NCBI GenBank assembly: GCA_964373715.1
Contig: CAYJVR010000007.1
Location: forward strand, 26,787-89,931
DNA from: an uncultured Planctomycetia bacterium
GTDB lineage: Bacteria > Omnitrophota > Gorgyraeia > 1-14-0-20-64-10
Direction: 5' to 3'
Length of the DNA: 63,145 nucleotides
The notes beneath the pieces were generated by a model. That model made no database searches and was not told the DNA's origin. It saw nothing but the letters and a program-made list of their open reading frames with translations. This document shows, in pieces, positions 27,092-63,145 of this stretch; the first letter of the stretch is position 1; each line of letters begins with the position of its first letter. A program made the translations under genes and the position numbers.

Positions 27092-30000
27092 ATGAAGATA
27101 AAACCGATTGTGGCACGTGTTATAGAAAGAGGAATCAGAGGAGGTACTCTTCTGGTTTTTCTTACATCTTACTCTGTTTCTGAGCCGTACTTACTAGGCC
27201 GGGATACTCTTCGTCCTGAGCCAATTCGAGAAGCAACCGGATCTGGCCTAAAAGAACTAAGAGAAAGAATCTCTGAGGATACTGTCGCATTCAGAGCCGG
27301 CTTGGAGGAGGGTAGCTCTTTGCAAGATTTGATTCGAAACGCTGAAACTCTGTTGGGAGATCCGGCGCAAGAGGCGGTGACTCCGGAGAAAGCTCAATTG
27401 CTGGAACAGTTGATTCCTTGGGTCGAAAAGAAGCTACGGGAGCAGGAGAAAGTTGGATTGCTGCGCCCCACTCTCCAACTGATTGAGAGCGCGCAGTCTT
27501 TTAAGGCTGGGAATACCGTGTTTTTGCCTTTCGAGGCTGCCGACGCCGTTTTTATCACCGATTTGCACGGTGATCGCATCTCGTTCCAACAGATTCTTAC
27601 ACAGGTAAGCTACGATCCGGAGGCGAACAAAAAAGCTCTCCGTAAAAAATATCTGATATTGGGCGGAGATTATGTGGATGGAGGGCCGCGGAGTTTGGAC
27701 GTGCTGCTCAAAACTCTCACTCTTTATCTGCAAGATTCGAAGCATGTTGTTCTCATGGGCGGCAACATCGACCGCTATCGGCTGAAAACCGTAGAACAAG
27801 ACAAGTATCGATTTTTTCTGCAATTGAAAGAGCGATTAGGAACGAACGGTGAAGCTCTTTATAAGAAATGGCAAGAATTTGCCCGCCAATTTTTAGTGGC
27901 GGATGTCATTACAAAAAATGGCTTTGCCTTTGTGCACGCAGCTCCTCCCACCGATAAAGTCCAAGGATATGACCTCGAACGAGGTTTGGAATGGCTCTCT
28001 TTCAGTGATGAAGCGAAGCACGAAATGGCGACGAATTCGTTGCGGCGTCCGGGTTTACCCAATCTTAGCGATGGTTCCGATCAAGAAAACGAACAATACA
28101 GCCGGGATCTTCAAAGGGATTATGAAGGCCACCCTTCCAGCCGGGTTACCGGAATAGAAAGCATCCGAAAATTCGGAGAATTAACAGGGGCATCGGTTAT
28201 TCTTCGGGGGCATGACAGCGGTTCACCCCACGATAAAGCGCTGGTTGTCCCGGTGGAAGGGGGTAAAAAAATTACTGTCCTTACGGTGCATGCTTCCGTA
28301 ATAGGAAGCCCGGAAAGCGAAAAAGTTTATCCGAAAACGCCGAGATGCTACGCGGTAGTGAAGTTGGACCACAATTACACCACGATTGACCCGACCAGTA
28401 CCGATCCGACCGAACAAATTGTCTATCCTGTTTTACCAGACGCCGGCTTGGAGGAGAGCGATGAGGGGCCGCCACCGTCTGCTTTCTGGCCTGAAGAACA
28501 TTTCGAAAGGCTGAGTCAGCGGATTGCCCCGTATGTGACGCAGACTGCAACGGTTCCATTTACCTCTTGGGATGAATTAAAGGCCTACCTGAAACTCCAT
28601 AAAGCGGAATTAGAGCAAAGAAATCACGAGGCCTTAATTGCTTCTGGACAGATAAAGTCGACAGATCCCGTCACTCGGTTCGCGTATCAGACGTTCGTCA
28701 ATGCCTTCTCAGAAGGCGGTTGGGCAACCGGAGTGGGTCAGAATTGGCAGCGGGCCGCGGGGGCATTGGATTTAAGCGAGCGAATCGCGCCGGTTATCCA
28801 GTTTCCGAACGGACAGGCTTTTCCAACCTGGGAGGAGGTGGGGAATTATTTAAGAGATCACAAAGCGGATTTGGAACAACGCAATCATGAGGTTTTGGTT
28901 GTCTCTGGTAAGAAGAAGGCGACGGGTCTAGCGACCCCGGTTTCGTATCAAACCTTCATGCAAGCTTTTTATGAAGCGGGTTGGGTTATAGAAACTGAGC
29001 GGCAATGGATGTATGGGGGAGCTTTTGACCTGGCGGATAGGATTGCCAGCGCCATTCAGCTGCCGGACGGCAAACCATTCGAGAATTGGAACGCCTTAAG
29101 AGAATATCTCAGGGCCAACAAAACTGTTTTTGAAAGAAAGAATTACGAAGCTCAAGTGGTTTCCGGCCAGATAGATCCACAGGAACAAAAGACTCCAACG
29201 TTGTTAGCCTATACGACTCTCGTTTCAGCTTTTCAAGGGGGCGGTTGGGCAAGCTTGTCTCAAGTTTTAAGACGATCTGCGGGGGCTTTGGATCTCGCCC
29301 AGCGTCTTTCTCCGGTGGTTAAGCTTCCAGATAACAAACCTTTCAGTACGTGGGAAGAGGTTAAAGCGTATTTTATGGCCGACAAATCGATTTTGGAAAA
29401 ACAAAATCGGGAAGTCTTGCTCGCTACCAGCCCACTCAAGCCGAAAGACCGTTCTGTGCTATTGGCCTATTCAACCCTTTTGGAAGCTTTCCGAGAGGGA
29501 GGATGGGTGGAAATCCCGGAAGAAGAATACATAAGATGGAAACGGTCCTCTTCTTCTCTCAGTTTAGGGGAGCGGTTGGCGCCGATTGTTCAGTTACCCG
29601 ATGGTCAGCCGTTTTCAAATTGGGAGGATCTAAGGTCCTATTTGAAAGCTCATAAAGCCGATCTGGAGCGCCGGAATTATGAGGTCTTAAGTGCCTCCGG
29701 TCAGGTAGAAGCAGAAGATGCCCCAGGTCCTTTGTCATATACCACGCTTGCGTATGCGTTCGGCGAAGCCGGATTATTTAAGGGCAGTGACGAGGCGTAT
29801 TGGGCCGCTGGCGCTCTTGAACTATCGGAACGGCTTGCCCCGATTGTTCAACTTCCCAACGGTCAGCCGATAGCGACTTGGGAGGATTTGAAAGCTTACC
29901 TGAAAGCGAATAAGGCCAAACTGGAAAGGCAGAATCACGAAATATTAGTTGCTTCCGGGAAGGTAAAGCCGGGTGTTCCTGTTCATCCGCTTTCGTACAA

Positions 30001-32941
30001 CACGCTTGTTAATGCATTTCGGGAAGCAGGTTGGACACCCGCATCAACGACCTATGTGAACTGGGTTGCGAGTGCCGTTGATTTGGCAGAGAGAATCGCG
30101 CCGGCTGTTCAGCTTCCCAATGGCCAGCCGTTCGAGAGCTGGGAAGCCCTCAAAGCTTATTTGAAAGCCAACAAGAGCCGATTGGAAGAACGGAATCACG
30201 AAGTTTTAGTGGCCGCGGGTCAGGTGAAACCGACCGATCCTGTCGGATCTCTTTCGTATCTAACCCTCGTCAGTGCTTTCCAAGAAGGAAGTTGGGCAGT
30301 CGGCGTTGATTATAGCTGGCAACGGAATGCAGGTGGGTTCGATCTCAGCGAGCGGCTCGCGGCGGTCGTTCAGCTTCCCAATGGGCAGCCATTTGGAAGC
30401 TGGAAAGATTTAAAAGAATATTTCACGGCCAATAAGGTTGTTTTGGAAAGGCGGAATCACGAAATGTTGGTTACTTCCGGCCAATCTAAACAGGAGGCCT
30501 CTCCTCGTTCGTTGGCCTATGGTTCTCTGCTGCTTGCATTTCGGGAAGCGGGTTGGACGGGTGAAGAAGTGAAAGGTTGGTTTTGGGATGCGGGCTCACT
30601 TGATTTAGCAGAACGATTGCGGCCTGCCATTCAGCTTCCAGGAGGACAACCGTTTCAGACATGGGAGAGCTTTAAAGCATACCTTTTGGCGCACAAAGCG
30701 GAATTAGAAGCCCACAACCAGAGAGTGTTAGCTGAATTCGATCCTTCGGAATTGCAAGAAGAGGTTTCGGGCAGGTTGTCTTTTGGAACTCTTGTGGGCG
30801 CCGCGATTGAGGCTGAGTTGGTTCTGGGTGACCAAAGCTGGCTTCGGGCGGCAGGAGCCCTTGATTTAAGCGAAAGGATCGCCACGGTCGTCCAGCTTCC
30901 GAGCGGGAAACCATTTAAAACGTGGGAAGATCTCAAGGATTATCTTGTCGCGCATAAACAGGAGTTGGATCGAAAGAACTGGGAAGCGCTGGTGGATTTG
31001 GGACAAATCAAGTCGATCAATCCGATCCAGCCCATTTCGTACGCCACTCTTTATCAAGCTTTTCGAGAAGCAGGGTGGGCGATTCAAGTCAGCCAAGATT
31101 GGTTGCGCGCATCCGCCGGGTTAGATTTAAGCCAGCGGTTGGCGCCGATTGTTCATCTTCCCGATGGACAGCCCTTTAGAACGTGGGGAGATTTAAAGGT
31201 TTATCTTAAACCCCTCAAATTTGCGTTGGAGCAACGGAATCGAGAGGCATTGATCGGGTCCGGCCAGATGAAAACAGACAGCCCCAATCAGGCGCTTTCT
31301 TATGCGACGCTTTTCCAGGCGTTCCGAGAAGCCGGATGGGCAGTGGACGTAGACCAGGGCTGGTTGAGAGATTCCAGCTCGTTGGACTTGGCCGACCGCC
31401 TTTCTCCGTTGGTATTGCAAGACGAAGATCAAGTTCCTTTTTCGACCTGGCCGGAACTCAAGGCCTATCTGATAGCCAAAAAAGCCGATTTGGAACGGCA
31501 AAATACGCAAGCTTTACAAACGTTTGAAGAACCGAACGAAACGACGGTTGCAGGCCGGCTGGCGTACGCGACGCTTGTTGCTGCGTTCCAAGAGATTGGA
31601 TGGACGGCGAGAGTGGATGTCAACTGGAACCGGGCCGCGGGGGCATTGGATTTAAACGAGAGGATCGAAGGTTTTCTCGCGCTCCATCCGTTGCCGGAAC
31701 AGCCGGATTGGCCCGATGTTCGTCAATGGTATCTTGAGAACAGAGAAGGGTTGGCGCAGGCCAACTGGCAAGCTTTGAATCCAGAGACACCCCGTCCGGC
31801 CGATTACTATTTAGCTCCTGCCACAATAGGTTTTGCTCTTGTCGAAGCCGGCCATTTGCCTGAGACTTTGCGAAACGGAATCCATGAAAACGGTATTGAA
31901 TTGAACTATGCTTTGAACCATCAGAGAACATTAATCAGTCAATTGGGAGCTGCTCTTGACCAGCTGAATCCTGTAAATTTTCCAGTTGGACAAGAAAAGG
32001 AATTCGTTACGGCCGTAAAGAATTGGATGCATCCGGAGCTGCTTCTTAAAGTGACAAGTGAGGTTGAACAACAGGACGTCAACAGCCTCGCCGCTGCTTT
32101 CCAGGCGGGGAATCAAACTCCAGCCGGTGCCGCACGGGTGGCCGGGTTGACTGCGGCAAGGGCTCGAAAGCTATGGGGGTATGTCACCGGTGCGAAAACA
32201 TTTGTTCCTGTAACTTACGCAAACAACAGAGCTTTCCCGAAGCTCGTTACAGAATTAGTGGCCGTTCCTTACGCTCAGCCGGTGATAGCCGAGTGGCGAA
32301 GTGGCTTGGAAGAGACCCGAATTTCTGTGCTGGAGCGGAGCGCCATCTCTCGTTTGACGGCAGAACGGGGAATTTTTGAATGGGCGCGATCGTGGGCAGA
32401 GGTTGTCCGTTCCTTGGGAGGCGAACTTTACGATGGAATCATCAACGTCACGAATCCTGATCAACCTGCTTTGTCGAAATCATTCGATTTAACTCGTTCG
32501 TTAGAGGCGGATGGTCATGCTTTAGTTGTTCCAACGCTACCGGCTCAGGAGATAAAGCTCGTTCAGTCAGCCACTTTGTGGGTGCAAAAGGGGGTCCTCG
32601 TGCCTGCTGCGTGGAGGGAGTTTTTCCAAATCAGGGAATTGGCCGCTGAAGAGCCTGAACAAGCCGGGGAAGCTTTGAGGGAAGCCCGAGTAGGGGACGT
32701 TGTTCTGTTGAACGATGAATTCGTTACGGAAACCACTCAAGAAAACTGGGTAAATATCCTGAATGAGCGGGAACTTCTCGGGCTTCGCGTTCCGGCAGGG
32801 ATGAATTTGGAAACATACTCTGAGAAGGATTTGGCCACGCTGCTCATCGTTCTCGAGCGTTCCGGCATCCATTTTTATGATCTTTCCTCTCTTCATGCCG
32901 CCGATATCGAAGGCCAGCGGCAGTTACTCCTCTATCTGTAA
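27092..32941 (+). CDS. giant protein 1 (1949 aa): degenerate PPP/metallophosphoesterase-like head, 12-13 tandem ~87-aa repeats, unknown C-terminal region
   Basis: Single uninterrupted ORF. Head motifs are ITDLHGD, LGGDYVDGG, GGNIDR (in place of GNHE), FVHAAP and LRGHD. The repeat array is described separately. Three [A/S]GLEE motifs at 27296, 28442 and 32300. Confidence 0.85.
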   Translation: MKIKPIVARVIERGIRGGTLLVFLTSYSVSEPYLLGRDTLRPEPIREATGSGLKELRERISEDTVAFRAGLEEGSSLQDLIRNAETLLGDPAQEAVTPEKAQLLEQLIPWVEKKLREQEKVGLLRPTLQLIESAQSFKAGNTVFLPFEAADAVFITDLHGDRISFQQILTQVSYDPEANKKALRKKYLILGGDYVDGGPRSLDVLLKTLTLYLQDSKHVVLMGGNIDRYRLKTVEQDKYRFFLQLKERLGTNGEALYKKWQEFARQFLVADVITKNGFAFVHAAPPTDKVQGYDLERGLEWLSFSDEAKHEMATNSLRRPGLPNLSDGSDQENEQYSRDLQRDYEGHPSSRVTGIESIRKFGELTGASVILRGHDSGSPHDKALVVPVEGGKKITVLTVHASVIGSPESEKVYPKTPRCYAVVKLDHNYTTIDPTSTDPTEQIVYPVLPDAGLEESDEGPPPSAFWPEEHFERLSQRIAPYVTQTATVPFTSWDELKAYLKLHKAELEQRNHEALIASGQIKSTDPVTRFAYQTFVNAFSEGGWATGVGQNWQRAAGALDLSERIAPVIQFPNGQAFPTWEEVGNYLRDHKADLEQRNHEVLVVSGKKKATGLATPVSYQTFMQAFYEAGWVIETERQWMYGGAFDLADRIASAIQLPDGKPFENWNALREYLRANKTVFERKNYEAQVVSGQIDPQEQKTPTLLAYTTLVSAFQGGGWASLSQVLRRSAGALDLAQRLSPVVKLPDNKPFSTWEEVKAYFMADKSILEKQNREVLLATSPLKPKDRSVLLAYSTLLEAFREGGWVEIPEEEYIRWKRSSSSLSLGERLAPIVQLPDGQPFSNWEDLRSYLKAHKADLERRNYEVLSASGQVEAEDAPGPLSYTTLAYAFGEAGLFKGSDEAYWAAGALELSERLAPIVQLPNGQPIATWEDLKAYLKANKAKLERQNHEILVASGKVKPGVPVHPLSYNTLVNAFREAGWTPASTTYVNWVASAVDLAERIAPAVQLPNGQPFESWEALKAYLKANKSRLEERNHEVLVAAGQVKPTDPVGSLSYLTLVSAFQEGSWAVGVDYSWQRNAGGFDLSERLAAVVQLPNGQPFGSWKDLKEYFTANKVVLERRNHEMLVTSGQSKQEASPRSLAYGSLLLAFREAGWTGEEVKGWFWDAGSLDLAERLRPAIQLPGGQPFQTWESFKAYLLAHKAELEAHNQRVLAEFDPSELQEEVSGRLSFGTLVGAAIEAELVLGDQSWLRAAGALDLSERIATVVQLPSGKPFKTWEDLKDYLVAHKQELDRKNWEALVDLGQIKSINPIQPISYATLYQAFREAGWAIQVSQDWLRASAGLDLSQRLAPIVHLPDGQPFRTWGDLKVYLKPLKFALEQRNREALIGSGQMKTDSPNQALSYATLFQAFREAGWAVDVDQGWLRDSSSLDLADRLSPLVLQDEDQVPFSTWPELKAYLIAKKADLERQNTQALQTFEEPNETTVAGRLAYATLVAAFQEIGWTARVDVNWNRAAGALDLNERIEGFLALHPLPEQPDWPDVRQWYLENREGLAQANWQALNPETPRPADYYLAPATIGFALVEAGHLPETLRNGIHENGIELNYALNHQRTLISQLGAALDQLNPVNFPVGQEKEFVTAVKNWMHPELLLKVTSEVEQQDVNSLAAAFQAGNQTPAGAARVAGLTAARARKLWGYVTGAKTFVPVTYANNRAFPKLVTELVAVPYAQPVIAEWRSGLEETRISVLERSAISRLTAERGIFEWARSWAEVVRSLGGELYDGIINVTNPDQPALSKSFDLTRSLEADGHALVVPTLPAQEIKLVQSATLWVQKGVLVPAAWREFFQIRELAAEEPEQAGEALREARVGDVVLLNDEFVTETTQENWVNILNERELLGLRVPAGMNLETYSEKDLATLLIVLERSGIHFYDLSSLHAADIEGQRQLLLYL
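28495..31890 (+). repeat. in-frame tandem array, 12 units of about 262 bp plus a degenerate 13th
   Basis: Unit consensus: ALDLSERIAPVVQLPNGQPF.TWEDLKAYLKANKA.LERRNHEVLVASGQVKP.DP...LSY.TLV.AF.EAGWA......W.RAAG. Unit starts near 28495, 28763, 29021, 29285 and on to 31378, with the degenerate unit from 31643. Confidence 0.9.
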
Positions 32942-33916: not shown

Positions 33917-33995
33917 TCAATTGTTTGGAAAATAGAATTCTTCTCTGTAAGAGGAAAAGTTTTGAAGGGAACCCTTCCTCTCGAGAGTGGGGGTT

Positions 33996-34088
33996 TTGGG
34001 GAGAGTGTTGAACTCTCCCCAAAGAGTCCATTAGTTTTTGCTGGAGATGGGAATATTAAGGGAAGAACCGAGATATGGTTCTTCCCTT
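33996..34088. other. two perfect hairpins (10-bp and 12-bp stems)
   Basis: ttggggagag-tgttgaa-ctctccccaa (33996..34022) and aagggaagaacc-gagatat-ggttcttccctt (34058..34088). Neither has a T-run, so they are not canonical terminators. They sit just left of the tRNA-Pro half-copy. Confidence 0.7.
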
Positions 34089-34191
34089 AAAACGAGATCC
34101 GACGCTTGAGCGTCAGCCGCTGCCACAGTTTGTTTGCGGAAAGCGTTAGAAAGTCGTGAGCTCGTTTATTTGCAAAAGGCAGGAACTCGTT

Positions 34192-34232
34192 CGGGGCGTG
34201 GCTCAGCTTGGCTAGAGCGCTTGCATGGGGTG
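34192..34232 (+). repeat. 41-nt exact duplicate of the 5' half of tRNA-Pro(GGG) (att-like direct repeat)
   Basis: cggggcgtggctcagcttggctagagcgcttgcatggggtg is identical to 36131..36171. Identity ends at the 3' edge of the anticodon loop. Confidence 0.9.
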
Positions 34233-34360
34233 TTTAGTACTGTTTTTGAAACGCATTCATACATAATGAGATACAGGTTGACTGGTCGCCATAAGGTCGC
34301 CATTGTATACAGTCAATCGAGGGCTGACCGTTACACTTAACGCAGGAAGGAGTTGTCTAG

Positions 34361-34663
34361 GTGAGCGCGAGGATTGCGATTGATCGGGAGAAGATAGCGG
34401 ATTTCTGCCGGCGGCATCACATTCGACGGCTGGCGCTCTTCGGCTCTGTTCTGCGCGATGATTTCCGGCCTGATAGTGACGTGGATGTCCTCGTCGAATT
34501 CGAGCCGGGTGCTACCGTTGGATTTCTCCGGTTAGCCGCAATGGAACTCGAACTGTCGGGCATTCTTGGTCGAAAGGGAGATCTAAGAACACCTGCGGAG
34601 TTGAGCCGGTATTTCCGAGATGAAGTACTGAAGGAAGCCGAGGTCCAGTATGTCGCGGCGTAA
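34361..34663 (+). CDS. nucleotidyltransferase-domain antitoxin (MNT/MntA-like)
   Basis: GTG start after aggaaggag. LALFGSVLRDDFRPDSDVDVLVEF is the GS..R...D.D minimal nucleotidyltransferase signature. Overlaps the downstream HEPN gene by 14 nt. Confidence 0.8.
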   Translation: MSARIAIDREKIADFCRRHHIRRLALFGSVLRDDFRPDSDVDVLVEFEPGATVGFLRLAAMELELSGILGRKGDLRTPAELSRYFRDEVLKEAEVQYVAA

Positions 34664-34985
34664 CGATGCTAACTTCCTACGCGATATGATTGATGCCGCT
34701 AAGGAGGCTCTCTCTTTCGCCCAGGGCAAGAAACGCAGCGACTTAGATGAGGACCGGAAGCTTGTGCTCTCCATCGTTCACTTGGTCGAGATTATCGGCG
34801 AGGCCGCGGACCATGTGAGCAGAGAGTTTCAGGAAGCCCATCCAGAGATCCCTTGGCCGGTCATCATCGGTATGCGGAACCGTTTGGCCCACGCCTACTT
34901 TGAGGTAGATCTGGACCGGGTTTGGGATACCGTGAAGGACGATCTTCTTCCTTTGATCTCTCAGTTGGAAGGGATTGTTAAATGA
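34650..34985 (+). CDS. HEPN/DUF86 (HepT-like) toxin
   Basis: IGMRNRLAHAYFEVD contains the Rx4-6H HEPN motif. Size about 110 aa. Paired with the upstream MNT gene. Confidence 0.8.
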   Translation: MSRRNDANFLRDMIDAAKEALSFAQGKKRSDLDEDRKLVLSIVHLVEIIGEAADHVSREFQEAHPEIPWPVIIGMRNRLAHAYFEVDLDRVWDTVKDDLLPLISQLEGIVK

Positions 34986-36208: not shown

Positions 36209-36223
36209 TTTTGACAATTAACG

Positions 36224-36362: not shown

Positions 36363-36390
36363 GAATTGTTTTCAGTTTGGAGTTTGGAAA

Positions 36391-53228: not shown

Positions 53229-56200
53229 ATGAAAACTGGACGATTTTTGCCAAGATTTATAGCGCTTTTACTAGCATTCTCGCTGAGTGTGCCGTCACCC
53301 TCCTTTGCTCTGCGTCCTCAACAGGCGCCGGAGAGCAGCGAAGGGCGGCGGCTCGCCATGCTTTTGCTTTCAGGCAGGTCTTCCGCCGGATTAGAAGAGG
53401 GGAGTTATGGATTTGGTTTGACCGAGCGGGAATGGGCCGGCCTCAAGTACCTGATGAAGGATCAGCTGCCGGATCCGAACGAACCCGGTGCCTTGAACGA
53501 TGTGCGGGGATATCTTGCCCAGCTCGTCCGTGAAGGCTATGGCCCCGAAGAACCCCTTTCCGTCGGAGATCGCCAGCTTGCCGAAAATCTTTCCCGCAGA
53601 TTAGGAGAGATCTCCCTCCAGCGGGCGAGAGAGGCTCCCGTGATGCGTCCTCAGCCGACGGCGACTCAAGCATCTGCCGGCACTCCAGGAACGGTTATTC
53701 CTCCCGGTGTCTATGATCCCTCTCAGCAGGGTCCCGCTCAGGGGATGGTGAAGATTGGGGAGGGTTATTTCAATAAGAAGACCGTTGTTCTAGGGGTTTT
53801 GGCCGTTGCCCTTCTGGGTATTGCGGGATATTTAGCTTTCGGTCCTTTCTGGAAAAAGGGGCCCGAGGATGTTAAAGAGCCGAAGCCCGGCATTGAGAAA
53901 AAAGATGCTCCTCAGAAGAAGCCGCTGAATAAAAGGGACGGCGGCTTAGAGGAAAAGGTCGGGGAACTCAATAAGCTGAGCCTTGAGGTTGTCAGGGGAT
54001 GGACACAGCTGGGCCGGCGGGCGCAGATTCTCGATATGAGGGGATTAGCGAACGCGGTTGGGGTTACAGAGCAGAAGATCCAGGTCCCGATCGTCCTTCC
54101 ACGGGAGGCCGAGAGGATTCTCACGGAGAACCGGACGGTTGTTCTTCAGGCGCTTCAGCCTCCGGCCGCCGGGCAATCCGATGTTCTCATTCTGCAGGAG
54201 ATCGCGTTAAACCCGGAAGACGAAAACGTCACGCAGGAAACGCTGTCTTCACAGCGTTCTTTCCTGAACAGACAGCTTGAAAGCATCGCCGCCTCCCGGT
54301 CGGGGGGGCAGGTCCGCCTCTCTTCATCCGCCAGAACCTTCGAGCAGATACGCCTCTTCTTAACACTGCATGATCCATGGGCGGTCATCGTTTCCATGCC
54401 GGGCGGTCAGCCGGCATGGACCTACCTGGATGCGCATATGGACGCGGACGGGAAGTTTGTGAAGATCGCGAACGATCTTCTCCCCGGCAAGCCAGGCGAC
54501 TACGATTACGACCTCACCCTATTGGACGGCGTCCTTTCTTTTGACATGGATATAGGAGGCGGTATTTACTCCCGTGTGGATGTTCCGCCGGGAAGACTCC
54601 AGGCGGTCATTATTGCCCGCCCCAAAAATAAATTCGGCGGGTTGGAAGAGAATGCCGTTTGGACCAAAAGGATTGATCAAGGGTTCGACGGAAAACGCCT
54701 TCTGCTGTTCGGTTGGAGCGGATTTGTGGGGGGGCGGTTGCTCCAGGATCTTTCACAGCGTGTGGGCAGCCGTGTTTCCCATATCACGGCGGTAAGCCGG
54801 ACTGCCGGCCCGGTTCCCGGCCCCGGTTCTCCTCTTTCGGGCAAGTTCACTCCGCGGGCGGGCGACCTGCTCCAGATCAGCTTCATCCGGCAGATCGTCA
54901 ATCCGTCCGGCAGATTCGATGTCCGGCCGGACAAGATCTTTATGCCCGCAGGACTCGCTTGGCAGCATCCGCCCTCTTTGGGGCGCCAGCCTACAGAAGC
55001 CGATCTGCAGGCGATTCTCGAAGAAGAACTTTTATTCAACGGTATGACCGTTTTAATGTTGAGCGCTGTGATGTCTGACCGGCAGCAGCTCATCGTGACC
55101 TCTTCCAACGCGATTGACGTTATGGTGAGTCAATTGCCGGAGGCTCAGCGGCCGGCGCTGCAACAGCAGGCAGTCGAGATGGCGCGCCGCTATCTGGCCG
55201 CTTGGGTGCCGGCCATTGAGAAGCAGCAGAACCCGACAGCGGACGAGTTGAGATCTTTTGTCCGCAAGGATCTCGAGCAATTTCCTCCCGCGGATCCGGC
55301 GTTTGTCCGCCGACTCAGCTATCCCTATTCGATGTTGCTGCGGGAAGAGATTTTGAAGTTGGCTGCCGAGAGATCGGGTAAAGAGATCCGTGTGCTGCGG
55401 ATCTCCGATGTCTACGGGCCGGGTCAGCCGCTTGGCCGGGCCGTCTTGAATCCGGACCGCTCGGCGCGCCGGCCACAGCGGTTTTTAGCGGCATTGCTCG
55501 AGAGTTCGACCGGCTGGACGGAGTGGATCAGCCAATACGGTTCCCGCGCTCATGGTTTTCAGATCGACGGACAGGGGCATCTGACCGTCGCCATTCGTAA
55601 CGACTGGGTCGCTCCCACTTATGTCGGAGATGTGACCCAGATGTTGATTCGCGCGGCGGTGGCTGACATTCCGAAAGAGCAGGTTGTTCTTGAAGTCAGC
55701 GCCCCTTGGATCTCCAACAGGCAGATGGTGGAAACGATCCGTGACGTTGTCAGCGAAACCGTCGGCCAGGCGGATGTCGTTATACAGACGCAGGGCGCTC
55801 GGCAAGAAAAGCCGGCGGCCCGAAGCCGGGATCTGCGGCGATTAGGATTGACGTCAGTATCGCTCACGCCGCTGGACCAAGGGCTGCGGAATTGGCTTAG
55901 CCTCGGCGCCGCTGGACTGGAAGAAGGGCTGAAGTTCGGCGATCCGATGGTGTGGAAAGACGAGCGCGAGAGGACGGAGAAGATCGTCCAGGGCGCAATC
56001 GATTTCCTCCGGCAGAGAGCGGAGGTCTACGGAGTGGCTTATCCGGCGCTTTTCTCCGCTGCGGTTGTTGATCCGAGAATCGAGCACCTGAACCGGATGT
56101 GGGAAGGCATCCAGGCCGACATGGCCGGCCAGCCGGTTGTCGTGAGCGTGAAGGATCTTTACGCCGTGAAGCCGGAGGTCCAGATCAAACGGTTCGGCCA

Positions 56201-59200
56201 GGTGATTTGGGGCGAGAGTCTAACCGCCCTTTCCTGGAAAGAGATTCCTTACAACATCGCCCAGTCCCTGCTTTTCAGCGAAGTGGCATGGGCCACCGGT
56301 TTCCTGGACGCTCCCGGCAATCCGCTCACCGATTTCTACAAGAAGACCCGTGACAAGCAGCAGGAAGATTCCCTGATCACCGCGCAGGGGGTCCCCACGC
56401 TTCCGGCGTACGTCCGGTTCGTGCTCGGCGGGTATTCCTTTGAACGGCTGCGCTCTCTTCCAAACCAGCAGAAACAGGACGTGCTCAAGCGGGCGCTGCT
56501 GCTGGTGCTCAAGGGCAACGCTTTGGACCCGAACGTGCTCGACAAGCTGAAAGTTAACGCGGATTTGTTGAGCCAGCAGCTCGCCGATCAAAGCAGTCTG
56601 ATTCTCAACGACACCGATGCGCTTGTGAATGCGCTGACTGATCCGTCGGTTCGGGAAACGGTTTTATTCCCGGACAATACCGGCGTCGAGATGATCGGCG
56701 CGACGCTGTTGACCGCAGTCTACCTCAGGATGTATCCGGCAAGGAAGGTGACATGGGGCGTGAAGGAAGCTCCCTATCTGAAGGTGGACGTGGCCCGGCG
56801 GGACTTGACCGGATGGGACACGGTTGTGGACCAGGTTGACGGCCGAAGCTGGCTGGCCCGTTTCCGGGACGGCAAGTACAATCCCGGCCAGGATCCCCAG
56901 GTTCAGCAGCTCTTCGATTTTATGGCTGGTGCGGTCGGTGAGCCGGGTCGCTTTGAGGTCATGAGCCATTCGTGGCTCGAGAGTGGTCTTTCGGGGAAGC
57001 AGATTCCGGCCGATTTAGCCGCCCGTGTCGGCGGACGAAGCCGGATTCTGATCGCCGATGGCGAATGGCTAAACGAGCGGTTTGCCAACGGCGTTCCTTA
57101 TCCGCAGGGGACCTCGTACGAGATGGCGTGGGGGTATCTCGGCGAGAAAGGGATCCAGCAGTTCGGCCTTCTGCGGATGATCAAGGACAAATTCATCGTC
57201 GTTATTCCTCCGGGGCGTGTTCCGGACGATTTCGAGGTGCTCGAAGGGGGAGTCCAGGGTCTTGTGAGCTTTGCCCGGTTTGAGGCCGGGTTGGAGGAGC
57301 CGACGCAGGAGCAGATCTCAGAACGGATTCGGGTCATGGGCGATGTTTCCTACGATCTTGCCACTGAAATATTCGAGATGAGCGAGAGACAGAATCGTCC
57401 TATTGCGGAGCTTCTGCAAAGTCAGCCGATTTTGGAGATGGTACTGCCCCTGTTTGACGCCGATAAACAACTTCGGAAATCCTTGAGGCGAGGCGGCCTT
57501 ACTGTTTCGGAAGTCGAGGAGTCGATTCAGCGGCTGATTGAAGGCCCGCAGCCGGAGACCCGGCTGCTGCTGGCGGAAACCGTTCTCAACGTCCTGGCGA
57601 TAAGACGTCAACACGGCGCCTCTTTGGACTATCCGGACATCCTAGCTGATTTCCGGACCTTAGCGAAAGGTGAAATCGCTGCGAATCAGGCGAGATACAG
57701 ACAGGTAGAACCATTAGTAGACATCTCCGCGCTGGCATTGATCGAATGGGCGAAAGTCAGCGTCGGACTTTTCCCCGCCGGGCTGGAGGAGCCGACGCAG
57801 GACCAGGTTCGGGCCGCGGCGCTGCAGATACTTCAGTCCCCGGAGACTCGCGGGGGGCGGTGGGTCTTGTTCATTCCTCAGTTGGACGCGTCGGTCCGTG
57901 ATGCGCTGATTGACGACACCCGCGCGGCGATTAACGCCAACCAGGCGGGGTGGATCTCTGGAGGATTGCTGACGAAAAAAGAGTTGAACCATCTGCGTGG
58001 CGACGTCAACACGGCGATCCAGAAAGCCAATTCTCAACTTGCAAGAGAGAGCAAAGAGAAGGCCAAAGTGAAAACCGAAGCGTCCCCCACGAGCCCGACG
58101 GCTTCTGCTCAGCCTCAAGTCCGTCAGCCGCCGGCCGCGCCGGTTGTTTCTTCGCCCGCCGTTTCAGTCCCTGCTCGTCCGGTGACCGGCTGGAACGCGG
58201 AGGTCGAGCGGGTGGTTGAGGCCGTCAGACAGGGCCGCCGGGGGTCCATCTTGCGGCTCCAGGACCACGACGTGGTCAACAGCCAGGAATTCCTCGATTT
58301 TGTTGATGAAATTATACGGCGCGGTGTTCCGGCGAACCGGATCGTTGTTTTGACCGAAGTCGGCAAACCCTCGACCCAGGCCCTGATCGAAAGCATGGGC
58401 AGGATGGGGATCCGGGACCAGGTCCTCCAGATTTTCCAATCCGGCGCGGCCTACCCGCTCATGCAGACCTACTTCGCCCGGGGCGGCCAGGTGCCGATCA
58501 ACCTGAGGGCCGTTTTTCCCGATCGACAAAGGCTCGACCTGATCCACGGGATGCACCGGCAGTTGTACCCCTTGTGGGAGAATTTGCTTGCCCGTGCCCG
58601 GCAGGGGGGCGTGACGAGCCCGTCTTCGGTCAACCAGATATCCAGAGGTCTTGCCGACAGGGGCGTCGGCCAAATTTGGGAGCGGTCCTCTCCGGCTTAC
58701 TGGTTTCTGGGTTTCTTTTCCGCTGTTTATGGGAATGCGATGGCGGACATTTATGTCCGGGGGGATGAGACGAGGGCCATTGCCGGCACTCAGGTTGATT
58801 TGGATACGAGGGAGTGGAGCACGAATGAGAGGGATGCGACCATCGCTGCCCAGTGGAATCAGATCATGGGCGACCTCCGGTCCGAAGGGTTTTTGATCCT
58901 GGGTGAGTTCGGCGGCATGCATGATTCCATCGTGGGCCGGCTTCAACCGGGAGAGATTCCTTTCGCGGTCAGCCGCAGCGAGGTTGCCTCTGGTATCGAC
59001 AACGATCCGTTCCTTGATCTTGCGCGGCGGCGGAACGAACAAGGGCGTTTGGGCCAGCCCTTCGACGTGGCCGATTTGCCTCTGGTCCAAAAGTTCCCGA
59101 TCTACAGCCGTCTGAAAGAACTCTGGGTCAGTCTCCCGAGGAGGGGTTTCCTCGGTGAGACTCGGGCTGCTCTCTCCGGCATCAAGGAAATACTTTCCGG

Positions 59201-62200
59201 CCTTCAGGGCCAGCAGGTGGCGGAGCTGAACAGGAAGATATTCGAGGTTACCTCGCAAGGACGGTGGCCCGCCGGAGTAATCCAGTCCCCGGCGGATGTC
59301 GATTTGGCGCAGGCCTACCTCATCTATGCGTGGTTGAACGATCCTTCGCGAAATCTCGTGACGCCCGAGTTTAAGCAGGTACTTCCGGCGGATGTCACCG
59401 GCATGACGGAACAGAACTGGTTCCGGGTGTTTGCCGACCGCGTGACGGCAGCCGGCCGAGAAAAGTGGGAAAACGCGATTGCGCAGGTGCTTTCCCAAGG
59501 GTATGGAATTCCCGAGCCACAGCTGAGATCTCGTCTGCAAAAATACGATTTCAATGTGTTTCGGGTGACATGGGGAGCCTCTGTCGAATCCTTGGTGGAT
59601 TTCTACGCGCGTGTTCTCGGCGTTTCTCTGCAGCCGGAAGAGAGGGCTGCTATGGCGAGCAGGCTCTCTTTGTTAGCCCAGCCCCAGTCGGTGTCTCTGC
59701 CGGCAGAGATTGAGCAGGCCTACGAAAGGCTTTTAAGGGCGGGGCCGATGGATTTCATGGCGCGGTTTGAGGAGCTCGAAGAAGTGGTCGGCCGGTTTCT
59801 CGCTCTTCACCCGGGAGAGATCCAGAATGACGCTTTGAGGCGGTGGATGGATGCCACCGCTTATACGCCGGAGGAGACGGCGATTATTAAAAGAACTGCG
59901 GAACGAATTGTCGCAGCGTTCAATCCGGGCAATCCGCGGTCGGCGGTTTTTGTGAATGAGATCGTCCGGTGGTCTAGGCCGATGTCGTTGAGGGCAACGA
60001 ATAGTTTGTGGCTGGATGCCGGGATTTCGGTTTATACGCCGGGTTTCCTGAAGCTGTTTCACGACGATGCGATGCAGTCGCTGACGTCGGACAGTTATTT
60101 CGCCGTTTCTCCCAAGCAGGGTTTCCCCTCCAGCTGGCGTGTTCCAACGGCGGCTTTTTTGGGTTCCAAAACCAGGTTTGCCGGCAAGTCAGCTCATGAA
60201 ATCACCCATGCGGAATTGTTCCGGAACGCGCCGGATTGGTGGCACACGCAGGGTCAGGGGGCGGTTGCTCCTGCCGATAGGATTACCCGCGCGGTGCAGA
60301 CCCTGATCGAAGACAGCGCAGCCCGAGAAATAAGGGAGGCTCGCCGGCCTTCGTTGCCGCCGTTTACGTCTTCTCCGAATGCCGGGCCTGCGGCGATTCA
60401 GTATCTCTACGAGGAAGGCCAGCGGATTTCCGGAAACCCTGAAGCATGGGATAGTTTCTTCCAATCGGTCGGTTTTATGCCGTTTACCGGTATCCATTAC
60501 GCGCAAGGGCCGATTTTGGCCGGTATCGCTTACGGGATCGGCCGCGAGATTGCCGTGCAGAAGTCTCAGACAGATCCGTATGAGAGAGCTTTACGGTTCG
60601 TCGCGTTCTACGCCCGTTCCGCCAAAGACTTGAGTACTCAGGAATTGATCCGTGCAGCCGCGGAATTCCGGAACCTGCCGGAGAACCAGGCCGGCCTGGA
60701 GGAGCCGAGTCAAGAAGAGATTCGCAAGGAGGCGGTTGAACTTCTGAAGATCCACACCGGACGCGATGCGATCCGCAACGGTAAATGGGCTCCGCTGATA
60801 CAGTTTCTCGAACAGAGTGCTTTGGAGACTTTGCAAGCACTCCTTGACAACCCAAGACAGACGGTTCCACCCAATGAGCAAGTTTGGAAACAACAAGGGT
60901 TGCTCAAAGGGGGTGGCGTTGCAAAGCTACTCGTTGGTGATATTGGAGAGGCCAAGCGCCGGGCTCAAGAACGCCTCAAGAGGAAAGTGGATGAGGCCGC
61001 GGGAGAGAAGGTTCGGGAGGAAGGAAAACAAAAAGCTGCTGAAGCTGAGCGTCTCATGCGTCCGGCGAAATGGGCCCACCAAGAGATGCTACCGGCTCTC
61101 AGGCGATTGGCCGAATCCCATCTGAACGATTTCTCGAGATTGCGCCAAGCTGGAGAGGCGCTTCCCGACCAGAAACAAGCGTGGCAATCGGTAGTAGATC
61201 AGCTTGAGCAAGCGACCCAGCAGTGGCGGCAGGAGGGACCGACTGCAGTTTCGGAACTTCAGTTCTTTACGCAGCTTGTTCACCGATTAAATCAACAGTG
61301 GTTTCTTGACCGTCAAGAACTACTTGCCATCGCTTCTGGGACAGCCATAGAAGGAGCCGTCGACGTTGCGGACTCTCTGGCCGTCGCCCGCGTCGTCAGA
61401 AGCAGGCGATACGAGTTGGAAGGACGGTTGGTTCCTGTCTATTTTATAGAGGAACTTTTCCCGCCACGCCGCGGCGAGCTGTTAGTCGGATGGACTCCAG
61501 TAGGGATTATTCTGATGCCTTTGAAGAATTTAGCCGAGATAGCGCAGTTTCCTTGGGGGGTTCCAAAGAGGTCGGAGACTTGGCTACGGAAGGGATTTAG
61601 CCCAAGCTTTGTTGCCGCCGTTTCAGAGCTGTATGGGGAGAGAACTCGTCGGCGATACAAAGAGACCGAACGATATCTTCCCGTCCTGTCGGAGGAAGTC
61701 CTTTTTGAAGAGATTCGGCACGCTCTCGACCATACCCGCGTGCAGGCCGCCACAGGGAAGACCTTCTTTACCGCCGGCGATGAATTTTTTGCGCAGTTCG
61801 TAGAAACGCAGCTTCGGCCAAACGGACTTTTGCGGGACATCCTCTGGGAGCATCCTGTCCTGGAAGGCGTTGAGTTCGAGAAACTGGAAGCCCCTCAGAT
61901 GGCTGCATTAAAACGGGCTTTTGCCCAGAGTTTATTTGAGTTCTCCGGAGGGATGACCTTCGCCGCTGCAGAGTCAGATCCAACCCGGAGTGTGGGAGAC
62001 TGGCTTTACTTTCAGGTGAGATGGGCCCTGAGTCAGAGTGCAGAATCTTCCTATTCCAACATGCTTTATGCAAATGTCGGAAAACTGGGAATTCTCTTGC
62101 TTGCCGAAGAGTTTGGGATAGCGCAGATTCCGTGGAGGACGGGTGCTTGGATAAACATCAAGAAGGACCAGCTGGCCTCGATGGCCCTGGCCATCGCCGA

Positions 62201-63145
62201 ACATCCCCCAGAAAAAATTCGGCTGGCGATGAAAGCGATTTACGCGCGCGAGTTCATCCATCCCATTGACGAACCTCCATTCCCAGAGATTGGCCCCGAT
62301 GGAAACCTTGTCCCGCGACCTGGCGCCGGATTGGAGGAGGGGTCGGCGGAAACCCCTGCGGCGCCTCAGCTAAATCTTATCGTCCGCGGAATGCTTGAGC
62401 ATGATTACGGTATGCCGGGTCAAGAGAGCCAGGTGCTGGAGATTCAAAGCAGGAACCCGCGGCCGCAGGGAGATTGGCACAGGGAGCTTTTCCACGGGTA
62501 CGCGCAGGCGGAGCGGGCGATCGTGGCGCAGGATCAGGGCAGCTGGTGGAGTCCCGATACGCTCAGGTTGGCGGGTTTTCTTGCTTTTGAGATCAAAGGG
62601 GGCGACGAGGATGCTCCGATTCCGGAGCGGGAGAAGATCGAGATTGTCCATCTGGCGGTCCATTCGGATTATTGGGAATCCGGACAGGTGGAGAAAGAGA
62701 TGGTGGCTTTGCTGCGCGGCGACTACCCGGAACTGCCCATTGTGATGACCGTGCACGAGGAGGACCGCAGCACACTGGAGTTTTTGAAAAGGCTCGGTTC
62801 CACCTCCGTTCGGCTCCCCCACCGGTTCGGTGATCGCGATGGTTTTGAGTTTCTGCTGTCGGAAGCGGATCGGGAAGGTGCCCTTGGTGTTGTTCCGGAA
62901 CAGGATTTCAACTTCAAGGTTCTTCAAATTAGAAATTGGGTTGCAGAGGGACAGATGTCCGTTGAGACAGCGGCTTTAGAAGTGGTGCGGGTGCTGGAGC
63001 AGGTGAAGGAAAGGTCCGCTTTCAATAGCTGGGGCTATGTTCGTGACATTTTGGATTTGGCTGAGAATGAGGTGGGGCTGGGTGGTGCCGTGTTTCTGCG
63101 GCTTTTCGCGGAGCAGGCGGTGAGGATGGCGCGCGGGGGACAGGA
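53229..63145 (+). CDS. giant protein 2, 3' end beyond the window (at least 3305 codons): signal peptide, TM helix, extended-SDR-like, DUF89/ARMT1-like, HExxH-containing and GNAT-like modules
   Basis: Hand translation of the frame with codon starts divisible by 3 gives no stop from ATG 53229 to base 63145. The supplied track lists no + strand ORF in this frame in the region. Starts MKTGRFLPRFIALLLAFSLSVPSPSFA. Eight [A/G]GLEE motifs, all in this frame. Confidence 0.85.
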   Translation, partial: MKTGRFLPRFIALLLAFSLSVPSPSFALRPQQAPESSEGRRLAMLLLSGRSSAGLEEGSYGFGLTEREWAGLKYLMKDQLPDPNEPGALNDVRGYLAQLVREGYGPEEPLSVGDRQLAENLSRRLGEISLQRAREAPVMRPQPTATQASAGTPGTVIPPGVYDPSQQGPAQGMVKIGEGYFNKKTVVLGVLAVALLGIAGYLAFGPFWKKGPEDVKEPKPGIEKKDAPQKKPLNKRDGGLEEKVGELNKLSLEVVRGWTQLGRRAQILDMRGLANAVGVTEQKIQVPIVLPREAERILTENRTVVLQALQPPAAGQSDVLILQEIALNPEDENVTQETLSSQRSFLNRQLESIAASRSGGQVRLSSSARTFEQIRLFLTLHDPWAVIVSMPGGQPAWTYLDAHMDADGKFVKIANDLLPGKPGDYDYDLTLLDGVLSFDMDIGGGIYSRVDVPPGRLQAVIIARPKNKFGGLEENAVWTKRIDQGFDGKRLLLFGWSGFVGGRLLQDLSQRVGSRVSHITAVSRTAGPVPGPGSPLSGKFTPRAGDLLQISFIRQIVNPSGRFDVRPDKIFMPAGLAWQHPPSLGRQPTEADLQAILEEELLFNGMTVLMLSAVMSDRQQLIVTSSNAIDVMVSQLPEAQRPALQQQAVEMARRYLAAWVPAIEKQQNPTADELRSFVRKDLEQFPPADPAFVRRLSYPYSMLLREEILKLAAERSGKEIRVLRISDVYGPGQPLGRAVLNPDRSARRPQRFLAALLESSTGWTEWISQYGSRAHGFQIDGQGHLTVAIRNDWVAPTYVGDVTQMLIRAAVADIPKEQVVLEVSAPWISNRQMVETIRDVVSETVGQADVVIQTQGARQEKPAARSRDLRRLGLTSVSLTPLDQGLRNWLSLGAAGLEEGLKFGDPMVWKDERERTEKIVQGAIDFLRQRAEVYGVAYPALFSAAVVDPRIEHLNRMWEGIQADMAGQPVVVSVKDLYAVKPEVQIKRFGQVIWGESLTALSWKEIPYNIAQSLLFSEVAWATGFLDAPGNPLTDFYKKTRDKQQEDSLITAQGVPTLPAYVRFVLGGYSFERLRSLPNQQKQDVLKRALLLVLKGNALDPNVLDKLKVNADLLSQQLADQSSLILNDTDALVNALTDPSVRETVLFPDNTGVEMIGATLLTAVYLRMYPARKVTWGVKEAPYLKVDVARRDLTGWDTVVDQVDGRSWLARFRDGKYNPGQDPQVQQLFDFMAGAVGEPGRFEVMSHSWLESGLSGKQIPADLAARVGGRSRILIADGEWLNERFANGVPYPQGTSYEMAWGYLGEKGIQQFGLLRMIKDKFIVVIPPGRVPDDFEVLEGGVQGLVSFARFEAGLEEPTQEQISERIRVMGDVSYDLATEIFEMSERQNRPIAELLQSQPILEMVLPLFDADKQLRKSLRRGGLTVSEVEESIQRLIEGPQPETRLLLAETVLNVLAIRRQHGASLDYPDILADFRTLAKGEIAANQARYRQVEPLVDISALALIEWAKVSVGLFPAGLEEPTQDQVRAAALQILQSPETRGGRWVLFIPQLDASVRDALIDDTRAAINANQAGWISGGLLTKKELNHLRGDVNTAIQKANSQLARESKEKAKVKTEASPTSPTASAQPQVRQPPAAPVVSSPAVSVPARPVTGWNAEVERVVEAVRQGRRGSILRLQDHDVVNSQEFLDFVDEIIRRGVPANRIVVLTEVGKPSTQALIESMGRMGIRDQVLQIFQSGAAYPLMQTYFARGGQVPINLRAVFPDRQRLDLIHGMHRQLYPLWENLLARARQGGVTSPSSVNQISRGLADRGVGQIWERSSPAYWFLGFFSAVYGNAMADIYVRGDETRAIAGTQVDLDTREWSTNERDATIAAQWNQIMGDLRSEGFLILGEFGGMHDSIVGRLQPGEIPFAVSRSEVASGIDNDPFLDLARRRNEQGRLGQPFDVADLPLVQKFPIYSRLKELWVSLPRRGFLGETRAALSGIKEILSGLQGQQVAELNRKIFEVTSQGRWPAGVIQSPADVDLAQAYLIYAWLNDPSRNLVTPEFKQVLPADVTGMTEQNWFRVFADRVTAAGREKWENAIAQVLSQGYGIPEPQLRSRLQKYDFNVFRVTWGASVESLVDFYARVLGVSLQPEERAAMASRLSLLAQPQSVSLPAEIEQAYERLLRAGPMDFMARFEELEEVVGRFLALHPGEIQNDALRRWMDATAYTPEETAIIKRTAERIVAAFNPGNPRSAVFVNEIVRWSRPMSLRATNSLWLDAGISVYTPGFLKLFHDDAMQSLTSDSYFAVSPKQGFPSSWRVPTAAFLGSKTRFAGKSAHEITHAELFRNAPDWWHTQGQGAVAPADRITRAVQTLIEDSAAREIREARRPSLPPFTSSPNAGPAAIQYLYEEGQRISGNPEAWDSFFQSVGFMPFTGIHYAQGPILAGIAYGIGREIAVQKSQTDPYERALRFVAFYARSAKDLSTQELIRAAAEFRNLPENQAGLEEPSQEEIRKEAVELLKIHTGRDAIRNGKWAPLIQFLEQSALETLQALLDNPRQTVPPNEQVWKQQGLLKGGGVAKLLVGDIGEAKRRAQERLKRKVDEAAGEKVREEGKQKAAEAERLMRPAKWAHQEMLPALRRLAESHLNDFSRLRQAGEALPDQKQAWQSVVDQLEQATQQWRQEGPTAVSELQFFTQLVHRLNQQWFLDRQELLAIASGTAIEGAVDVADSLAVARVVRSRRYELEGRLVPVYFIEELFPPRRGELLVGWTPVGIILMPLKNLAEIAQFPWGVPKRSETWLRKGFSPSFVAAVSELYGERTRRRYKETERYLPVLSEEVLFEEIRHALDHTRVQAATGKTFFTAGDEFFAQFVETQLRPNGLLRDILWEHPVLEGVEFEKLEAPQMAALKRAFAQSLFEFSGGMTFAAAESDPTRSVGDWLYFQVRWALSQSAESSYSNMLYANVGKLGILLLAEEFGIAQIPWRTGAWINIKKDQLASMALAIAEHPPEKIRLAMKAIYAREFIHPIDEPPFPEIGPDGNLVPRPGAGLEEGSAETPAAPQLNLIVRGMLEHDYGMPGQESQVLEIQSRNPRPQGDWHRELFHGYAQAERAIVAQDQGSWWSPDTLRLAGFLAFEIKGGDEDAPIPEREKIEIVHLAVHSDYWESGQVEKEMVALLRGDYPELPIVMTVHEEDRSTLEFLKRLGSTSVRLPHRFGDRDGFEFLLSEADREGALGVVPEQDFNFKVLQIRNWVAEGQMSVETAALEVVRVLEQVKERSAFNSWGYVRDILDLAENEVGLGGAVFLRLFAEQAVRMARGGQ

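Follow-up and report, generated by a model that had tools for sequence, protein, structure and literature searches.

A recurrent pentapeptide marks module starts in two long multi-enzyme proteins of an Omnitrophota bacterium

Results

Two long modular proteins carry eleven copies of a short peptide

We analyzed a stretch of DNA of 63,145 nucleotides, hereafter the window, from an uncultured bacterium assigned to the Omnitrophota in GTDB (assembly GCA_964373715.1, contig CAYJVR010000007.1, positions 26,787 to 89,931 of the forward strand), in which two long modular proteins, designated Giant 1 and Giant 2, carry a recurrent peptide of the form [AGS]GLEE (the motif). An earlier inspection of the letters alone, i.e., the sequence-only reading, had listed eleven in-frame copies in these proteins, and a six-frame scan found in-frame GLEE at 11 of the 11 listed positions. 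Homologous proteins are referred to below by P numbers and loci by L numbers.

Giant 1 comprises, in order, a weakly hydrophobic N-terminus, a TLRP element, a degenerate and a true motif copy, a PPP phosphatase module, a motif copy, a repeat array, a further motif copy and a C-terminal module. Its features, with amino acid (aa) positions, are as follows:

27092..32941, + strand: Giant 1, 1949 aa, complete, one Cys
27206-27217: TLRP element
27242..27256, + strand: degenerate motif SGLKE, aa 51-55, which aligns with AGLEE at aa 53 of P0002
27296..27310, + strand: motif AGLEE, aa 69-73, at the upstream edge of the phosphatase module
27311..28441, + strand: PPP-family Ser/Thr phosphatase module, aa 74-450, between two motif copies
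28442..28456, + strand: motif AGLEE, aa 451-455, at the downstream edge of the phosphatase module
28499..31906, + strand: tandem array of ~13 repeats of ~87 aa, aa ~470-1605
32300..32314, + strand: motif SGLEE, aa 1737-1741, ahead of the C-terminal module (aa 1742-1949)

The degenerate SGLKE (aa 51-55) and the AGLEE at aa 69 make up an N-terminal doublet. At the position orthologous to the aa 69 copy, P0002 has AGMEE, and 10 of the 11 homologues that were aligned have [AS]G[LMA]E[ED]. The phosphatase module contains a Pfam Metallophos match (aa 153-375), and an AlphaFold model of aa 1-560, with a mean predicted local distance difference test score (pLDDT) of 78 and values above 90 over most of aa 80-440, shows a confidently predicted PPP-phosphatase fold that ends at the strand formed by aa 441-444. 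In a Foldseek search, this model matched PP5, calcineurin and PP1 (E ~1e-13) over ~350-385 columns, which is about the length of the segment between the two motif copies. A position of the motif inside predicted folded domains would have spoken against the sequence-only reading. The copy at aa 451 opens a linker (aa 451-466, pLDDT <50) just past the last strand, but the copy at aa 69 falls inside a predicted helix and not in a disordered linker, which goes partly against that reading.

No AGLEE was found between the Giant 1 repeats, the motif bracketing the array only. Each ~87-aa repeat opens with AG(A)LDL[SA]ER, which bears a faint likeness to the motif, and the repeat consensus reads LDLSERIAP..QLPNGQPF.TWE.LK.YL...K..LE.RN.E.L......LSY.TL..AF.EAGW. 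The repeats matched no Pfam family.

Giant 2 is tiled by a DUF89 module and at least seven other segments:

53229..63145, + strand: Giant 2, at least 3305 aa, running past the end of the window, no Cys
53229..53318, + strand: Sec-type leader by hydropathy, hydrophobic at aa 10-28, ending ...SPSFA and then LRP
53307-53318: ALRP element
53385..53399, + strand: motif AGLEE, aa 53, the first copy past the leader
53769..53825, + strand: transmembrane helix predicted by hydropathy only, aa 181-199, between motif copies 1 and 2
53940..53954, + strand: motif GGLEE, aa 238
54636..54650, + strand: motif GGLEE, aa 470
55911..55925, + strand: motif AGLEE, aa 895, at the upstream edge of the DUF89 module
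55926..57284, + strand: DUF89/ARMT1-like module, aa 900-1352 (Pfam PF01937, E = 9e-12)
57285..57299, + strand: motif AGLEE, extended by PTQEQI, aa 1353, at the downstream edge of the DUF89 module
57777..57791, + strand: motif AGLEE, extended by PTQDQV, aa 1517
60195..60209, + strand: HEITH, aa 2323, a signature like the HEXXH of zinc proteases, taken as a lead only
60690..60704, + strand: motif AGLEE, extended by PSQEEI, aa 2488
62325..62339, + strand: motif AGLEE, aa 3033, ahead of the last visible segment

With its start placed at 53229, Giant 2 has a leader, MKTGRF...SPSFA followed by LRP, which resembles the P0007 leader (MKTGFF...AHALRP). On Logan contigs the gene is called from 53358, by which the leader is lost. 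Residues 170-434 of PDB entry 3pt1 (471 aa) align with aa 1078-1329 of Giant 2, with extrapolated ends at ~908 and ~1366, and the segment from aa 895 to 1352 (458 aa) has the size of a complete free-standing DUF89 protein. Amongst the module labels that had been assigned by eye, the metallophosphatase of Giant 1 and the DUF89/ARMT1 module of Giant 2 proved significant, whereas the short-chain dehydrogenase/reductase (SDR)-like label was weak (Pfam Epimerase, E = 0.03) and received no support from a PDB sequence search. The GNAT-like label given to the tail likewise found no support in Pfam or PDB sequence searches, and the segment after aa 3033 had no significant family match.

About 45 aa past the copy at aa 470 lies a GxxGxxG-like stretch, GWSGFVGG. 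The ~100 aa past the copy at aa 1517 are paralogous to those past aa 2488, and resemble the module that follows TGLEEPTEETV in P0002. The longest segment between motif copies (971 aa) contains a TGMTE at aa 2057 (59397-59411), possibly a decayed copy by which the segment is divided. Giant 2 had no relatives by k-mer protein search, either whole or with its DUF89 segment, and phmmer of Giant 2 against 150 retrieved proteins gave no match.

Both giants are poor in Cys, with one residue in 5254 versus 46 expected (P ~3e-19) from the other 36 proteins of the window (0.88% Cys), and P0002, P0009, P0010 and P0016 also contain none. Both giants also show an excess of Gln and Trp and a deficit of Lys, Ile, Met and His.

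The motif is strongly over-represented in both giants

From composition, 0.026 and 0.037 copies of [AGS]GLEE, i.e., ~0.06 in total, were expected in the two giants, and 11 were observed. The mean over 5000 shuffles was 0.06 copies with a maximum of 2, and a Poisson estimate derived from the observed and expected counts gives P ~1e-21. GLEE is the commonest 4-mer of the giants combined (n=11; runner-up GQPF, n=6) and of Giant 2 alone (n=8; next unrelated 4-mer, n=3); in Giant 1 alone it is outnumbered by 4-mers from the repeat array. No [AGS]GLEE was found in the 36 other proteins of the window. The sole other in-frame GLEE amongst the window genes is the RGLEE in NfeD (50353), as had been claimed, and the six-frame scan gave one additional GLEE, in a non-coding antisense frame.

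Comparison of the 150-aa flanks of all 11 copies identified one related pair, i.e., the sequences downstream of aa 1517 and aa 2488 of Giant 2 (score 108 versus a null maximum of 61). Since the flanks are unrelated except in this pair, the motif is not a domain repeat, and simple domain duplication was ruled out as its origin. By self-BLAST, no internal repeats were found in Giant 2.

When 185,579 GTDB genomes were scanned for DNA that encodes AGLEEP[TS]Q[DE], 19 matches were obtained, in scattered taxa and mostly in non-coding frames; as all 19 were judged to be due to chance, this extended form appears to be private to the lineage of the window. A literature search for AGLEE or "GLEE motif" found nothing relevant, in agreement with the earlier remark that the motif has no named precedent.

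Homologous proteins share the motif and a common layout

A k-mer search with Giant 1 matched only itself and P0002 (48% identity over the N-terminal 470 aa), which carries AGLEE, AGMEE, TGLEEPTEETV and SGMEE. An exhaustive HMMER search with the shared N-terminal (phosphatase) module yielded 353 matches, the best of which are mostly long multi-module proteins with the phosphatase module at varying internal positions, and a metagenome scan with the module alignment gave at least four weak loci. P0004, P0007 and P0012 are named Candidatus Omnitrophota bacterium by NCBI. Between three and eight copies of [AGST]G[LM]EE are present in each of P0002, P0004, P0006, P0007, P0008, P0010, P0013, P0015 and P0016, versus 0.01-0.08 expected, and the variants AGAEE, AGSEE and AGMEE occur in homologues. 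In an unbiased scan for recurrent 5-mers allowing one wildcard, the motif was the top pattern in each motif-bearing homologue.

A logo built from 60 instances reads P(-5) x P(-3) [AS] [AS] G [LM] E E [T/G/P/K], with an upstream side that is rich in Pro, Ser, Thr and Ala and coil-like, and a downstream side that is charged and helix-like. The motif as a whole is linear and ~9 residues long, P-x-P-[AS]-[AS]-G-[LM]-E-E-[T/G/P], with [A/S]-G-[L/M]-E-E as its invariant core.

Members of the family have a hydrophobic leader ending in A-x-A followed by L-R-P, then 10-30 residues and often two motif copies 19-41 aa apart, and then modules that are each preceded by the motif; several end in a conserved C-terminal module (...LFA). 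The element [AT]-L-R-[P/T] stands right after the hydrophobic leader, 5-30 residues before the first motif copy, in both giants as well as in P0004, P0007, P0009, P0010 and P0015, which suggests a family-specific N-terminal sorting or pro-region. A C-terminal module of ~140 aa ending in LFA is common to P0004, P0008, P0010 and a 405-aa protein in L030. At the C-termini of large homologues we observed Ala-Ala in 8 of 43, Phe-Ala in four and Ser-Ala in two (...TLLAA, ...LQAA, ...DLFA); these Ala-ending termini recall ssrA-like or Tsp-recognised C-termini.

The motif is conserved at orthologous module boundaries

When the phosphatase modules of 11 proteins (31-46% identity) were aligned, the motif was present at the N-terminal edge in 10 and at the C-terminal edge in 8, with neighbouring modules that differ. 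In most homologues it stands directly before the long N-terminal helix of this module. In seven relatives, no Pfam domain is interrupted by the motif, with the matches to TPR, Metallophos, Fic, GATase, GNAT, PfkB, MTS, PrmA and HEAT each lying inside one inter-motif segment. When 12 family members were compared all against all by BLAST, a motif copy lay within 10 aa of the block start in 50% of cases and of the block end in 41%, versus 6.5% at random, although these blocks are not independent since most represent the same phosphatase module. Several blocks begin exactly on the motif in both partners, e.g., P0004/P0008 and P0007/P0010.

The motif marks the N-terminal edge of nearly every module in both giants and their relatives, and is conserved at orthologous module boundaries while the adjacent modules change. 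The core claim of the sequence-only reading is thereby upheld, namely that the motif falls at module boundaries, as seen from conserved orthologous edges, its position outside Pfam domains and the ends of homology blocks. The check that this reading had suggested, i.e., whether the motif persists in homologous giants while the flanks diverge, gave a positive answer.

Codon usage points to selection on the peptide

The DNA of the motif had been described as stereotyped, which is true only in part. In the window, Gly is encoded by GGC, GGA or GGG, Leu by TTG, TTA or CTG and Glu by GAG or GAA; amongst 41 copies from five organisms (the window, L022, L024, L030 and L031), four Gly, six Leu and two Glu codons are all used. 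From this synonymous variation we conclude that selection acts on the peptide and not on the DNA. Some codon bias beyond the amino acid is nevertheless present. GCC encodes the Ala before Gly in 21 of 27 cases and GCG does so once, yet GCG makes up 38% of all Ala codons in the window; GAG stands at the second Glu in 34 of 41 copies, and an NTG codon at Leu in 29 of 39. This preference could reflect codon-pair bias, recent copying or an RNA-level effect.

The preferences for Ala GCC and for GAG at the second Glu would suit a cassette-shuffling junction, i.e., a 15-nucleotide microhomology or a sequence travelling with a mobile module, with the peptide being incidental. So would the homology blocks that start exactly at the motif, and the different module sets of P0004, P0007 and P0010, which are positional orthologues. 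However, all synonymous codons occur and GGAGG is found in only 22 of 41 copies; moreover, orthologous sites have kept the peptide in proteins of 31-46% identity, a divergence over which a neutral pentapeptide would have decayed, and the variants AGMEE, AGAEE and AGSEE preserve the G..EE frame. Of the three readings offered from the sequence alone, the recombination scar is thus weakened by synonymous codon variation and by retention across this range of identity, and we consider such a junction quite improbable. The other two, a processing site and a linker or docking signature, are not separated by the evidence.

A further alternative is a signal in the RNA: at the start of each module, the GGAGG of ...TG GAG GAG would resemble an internal Shine-Dalgarno sequence at which translation pauses or initiates. 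Of 41 copies, 22 contain GGAGGAG, with NTG for Leu and GAG for Glu somewhat preferred. Against this, GGAGG is absent from 5 of the 11 copies in the window, in which GAA encodes one or both Glu residues, no start codon is enriched 5-10 nucleotides downstream, where positions +4 to +6 encode T/G/P/K/E, and the motifs of other lineages have no RNA element in common. Internal translation start or Shine-Dalgarno-like pausing was rejected in view of the codon variation together with the lack of downstream start codons, and an RNA-level explanation of the motif appears scarcely credible.

The motif is confined to one protein class in the loci examined

We surveyed three Omnitrophota loci of 27.7 kb (P0010, L024), 28.3 kb (P0004, L030) and 17.7 kb (P0007, L031). 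The motif was found in the giants and in the next multi-module protein at the P0004 locus (three copies). The 405-aa protein of L030, which consists of a leader, a GNAT module and the C-terminal module, carries three copies, and at the P0010 locus one copy falls shortly before the start that was called for the next large gene, within the open frame. None was found in the ~50 housekeeping genes of the three loci. Within the loci examined, the motif is confined to the modular-protein class.

The giants P0004, P0007 and P0010 occupy the same position, with LeuRS upstream and ComEA/ComEC downstream, and their differing module content at one fixed locus points to rapid module gain and loss. The full order in L024, L030 and L031 is DUF212, LysM-YkuD, AccA, CobA, LeuRS, giant, ComEA, ComEC. 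Beyond UvrC and a small DNA_binding_1 gene, L024 and L030 encode a second multi-module protein; L031 ends at its giant.

Sister lineages carry other punctuation peptides

P0012, an Omnitrophota protein of 5928 aa, contains 17-18 copies of an AAR[ML]A-type peptide, depending on the pattern used, versus 0.23 expected. P0043 contains 13 copies of R[SA]ExR, and P0035, P0053 and P0031 contain 4-5 copies each of RSE[VLMI]R, the pattern R[SA]E[VLIMA]R covering all four proteins. These alternative peptides are spaced 150-600 aa apart, form doublets ~23-34 aa apart, and flank the phosphatase module. Sister lineages therefore use different punctuation peptides at the same kind of spacing. In P0003, P0014, P0017 and other relatives, no punctuation was detectable.

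These peptides bear on the possibility that the motif is an uncleaved cap at module starts, with a Pro-rich coil, a Gly N-cap and an acidic first helical turn that would insulate module folding, the giants then being single multi-enzyme scaffolds. The logo fits such a cap, with P/S/A upstream and a helix-like E/K/Q/R pattern downstream. So do the copy at aa 69 of Giant 1, which is in or at a helix, and the position of the motif in most homologues directly before the long phosphatase helix. A single-sequence AlphaFold model of Giant 2 aa 1330-1700 (pLDDT 42.6, which gives only a hint of secondary structure) places both motif copies in coil before a helix, and the failure to find a protease also favours a cap. 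However, a generic helix cap needs no invariant five-residue sequence, nor would one be expected to give way altogether, in sister lineages, to AAR[ML]A or R[SA]ExR. Furthermore, the copy at aa 451 of Giant 1 is followed by a disordered Pro-rich stretch and not by a helix, and P0003 makes a multi-module chain of 2934 aa without such a cap. We therefore regard a structural cap as rather unlikely.

A second non-proteolytic explanation is that each module carries a handle for a partner particular to the clade, which would bind but not cut it; chaperones, scaffolds, modifying enzymes and factors for export or translocation are conceivable partners. The invariant core, its lineage-specific identity and its exposure at boundaries would all be consistent with a handle, and the first copies always stand behind a leader and [AT]LRP, which suggests a link to export. 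Nevertheless, no candidate partner emerged, copies of the motif would lie to either side of the membrane helix predicted in Giant 2, and doublets 19-41 aa apart are more easily read as spacer excision. A handle of this kind seems unlikely to us.

Genomic surroundings of the giants

The rest of the window (57% GC) is an ordinary bacterial chromosome with his and trp genes, ValRS, UvrB, LepA/LepB and an extracytoplasmic function (ECF) sigma factor. It has no orthologous housekeeping gene in common with the loci of named Omnitrophota. Between a BaxI-like gene and homoserine dehydrogenase lies a 2.5-kb interval (33917-36390) with a single 161-aa open reading frame (34982-35467) that had no family match. 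A tRNA-Pro(GGG) was found at 36131-36208, and no Rfam matches were obtained across the window. Right upstream of Giant 2 (50197-52646), there are a homologue of NfeD1b-type membrane proteases and small membrane proteins (DUF4149; DUF2062 in Logan calls). No stomatin partner was recognised, and nothing apart from the single RGLEE ties NfeD to the motif. The peptidases of the window are of housekeeping types only, i.e., M48, M16, S26 and NfeD.

Discussion

Module starts that bear an invariant peptide, selection acting on the protein, restriction to one leader-bearing modular class and the presence of unrelated peptides in sister lineages together argue for recognition of the motif by a clade-specific factor. 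In our best reading, the start of each module is marked for such a factor, most plausibly an endoprotease that processes a polyprotein, and we put this processing at just short of an even chance. Endoproteolysis is favoured as it explains the whole-protein-sized modules, the short doublet spacers and the lineage-specific code, and it is on these grounds that we infer cleavage. A trans-acting factor specific to the clade would read the motif, and would most likely be an endoprotease that cuts an exported or membrane-anchored precursor into separate modules. The released modules would include PPP phosphatase, DUF89, Fic, GNAT and methyltransferases, which would make the giants bacterial polyproteins, while the short stretches between doublets (19-41 aa apart) might be released as spacer or pro-peptides.

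Several observations weigh against processing by a protease. Neither the two giants nor seven relatives gave a Pfam match to S8, C39, C80 or another protease domain, and we found no protease gene that is conserved beside the giants. A metalloprotease acting in cis was also considered. HEXXH is present in Giant 2, P0002, P0013, P0018 and P0035, with most motif-bearing relatives lacking it; in P0002 a HETAH lies ~136 aa before TGLEEPTE and in Giant 2 the HEITH lies ~165 aa before AGLEEPSQ (aa 2488), but the two segments are not significantly similar. The HEXXH being sporadic and its segments mutually non-homologous, this candidate was rejected. By its leader and predicted transmembrane helix, Giant 2 would hold the copy at aa 53 and those from aa 238 onward on opposite sides of the membrane, which makes a single protease awkward. 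The Giant 1 copy at aa 69 is modelled within a helix spanning aa 51-88 with a pLDDT of 68-87, the motif is missing downstream of the phosphatase in P0002, P0013 and P0016, and the close relative P0003 is a long multi-module chain without punctuation. Finally, the background frequency of the motif was sampled over ~137 kb in four genomes.

A broader proposal, which we regard as possible but less likely than not, is that long multi-enzyme proteins of the Omnitrophota type are true polyproteins. A pentapeptide code particular to each clade (AGLEE, AAR[ML]A, R[SA]ExR) would be read by a co-evolving protease, releasing eukaryote-like enzymes (PPP phosphatase, Fic, GNAT, methyltransferases) from an exported Cys-free precursor. 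These enzymes might act as effectors against a host or prey, and the code might also allow in-frame exchange of modules between genes.

That the giant proteins of Omnitrophota might be cut by proteases has been put forward as a hypothesis, and the lack of known cleavage points was an obstacle to splitting them for analysis (West-Roberts et al., 2023, bioRxiv 10.1101/2023.11.21.568195). In the Omnitrophota giant-protein literature that we searched, no punctuation motif is reported. Whether these giants act as a single chain or as many products is explicitly an open question, which a boundary peptide makes directly testable. The motif is a first concrete candidate for cut sites in giant multi-enzyme proteins, and would allow such proteins to be divided by rule into the functional units that annotation and structure prediction require. 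The cognate protease could be sought by comparing the distribution of motif types with that of protease families. Should the modules prove to be separately released effectors, a polyprotein strategy would be added to bacterial cell biology.

The giants of the window belong with the long multi-enzyme proteins of Omnitrophota, for which a class of "multi-enzyme metabolic cluster" has been described (bioRxiv 10.64898/2026.06.07.730766). Like these, which are leader- or transmembrane-bearing chains tiled with unrelated enzyme domains (GNAT, methyltransferases, Ser/Thr phosphatases, kinases), Giant 1 and Giant 2 are tiled with distinct domains, and Giant 2 has a leader and a transmembrane-like helix, both by hydropathy only. 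They differ in length from Omnitrophota "giants" in the sense of open reading frames above 20 kb, as Giant 1 spans 5.85 kb and Giant 2 at least 9.9 kb.

MARTX toxins are huge secreted chains with several unrelated effector enzymes, joined by unstructured linkers with short cleavage sites beside Leu. They possess glycine-rich A/B/C repeats and an internal C80 cysteine protease domain, and are exported by type I secretion. Unlike in MARTX, neither C80, glycine-rich repeats nor a type I secretion signal was detected here by Pfam, and a cysteine protease acting in cis is excluded by the giants being in effect Cys-free. In viral polyproteins, a single open reading frame has each protein boundary marked by a short consensus for its own protease, and this consensus varies by lineage. 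In contrast to these, the giants lie on a cellular chromosome amongst housekeeping genes, and no protease domain acting in cis was identified in them.

In PatE cyanobactin precursors, each cassette lies between conserved recognition sequences, RSII and RSIII, that are 4-5 residues long, and the subtilisin-like PatA cuts after G-L-E-A-S (PMC4282754, PMC4663559). G-L-E is common to this site and the present motif, a resemblance which we take as a lead and not as evidence of membership. PatE has cassettes of 6-8 residues in a precursor of ~70 aa with its proteases encoded adjacently, whereas the modules of the giants are of 150-1000 aa, and no PatA/PatG-like or S8 protease gene was found within the window. 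The closest functional analogues of the giants are MARTX toxins and viral polyproteins, and the closest by sequence is the cyanobactin precursor.

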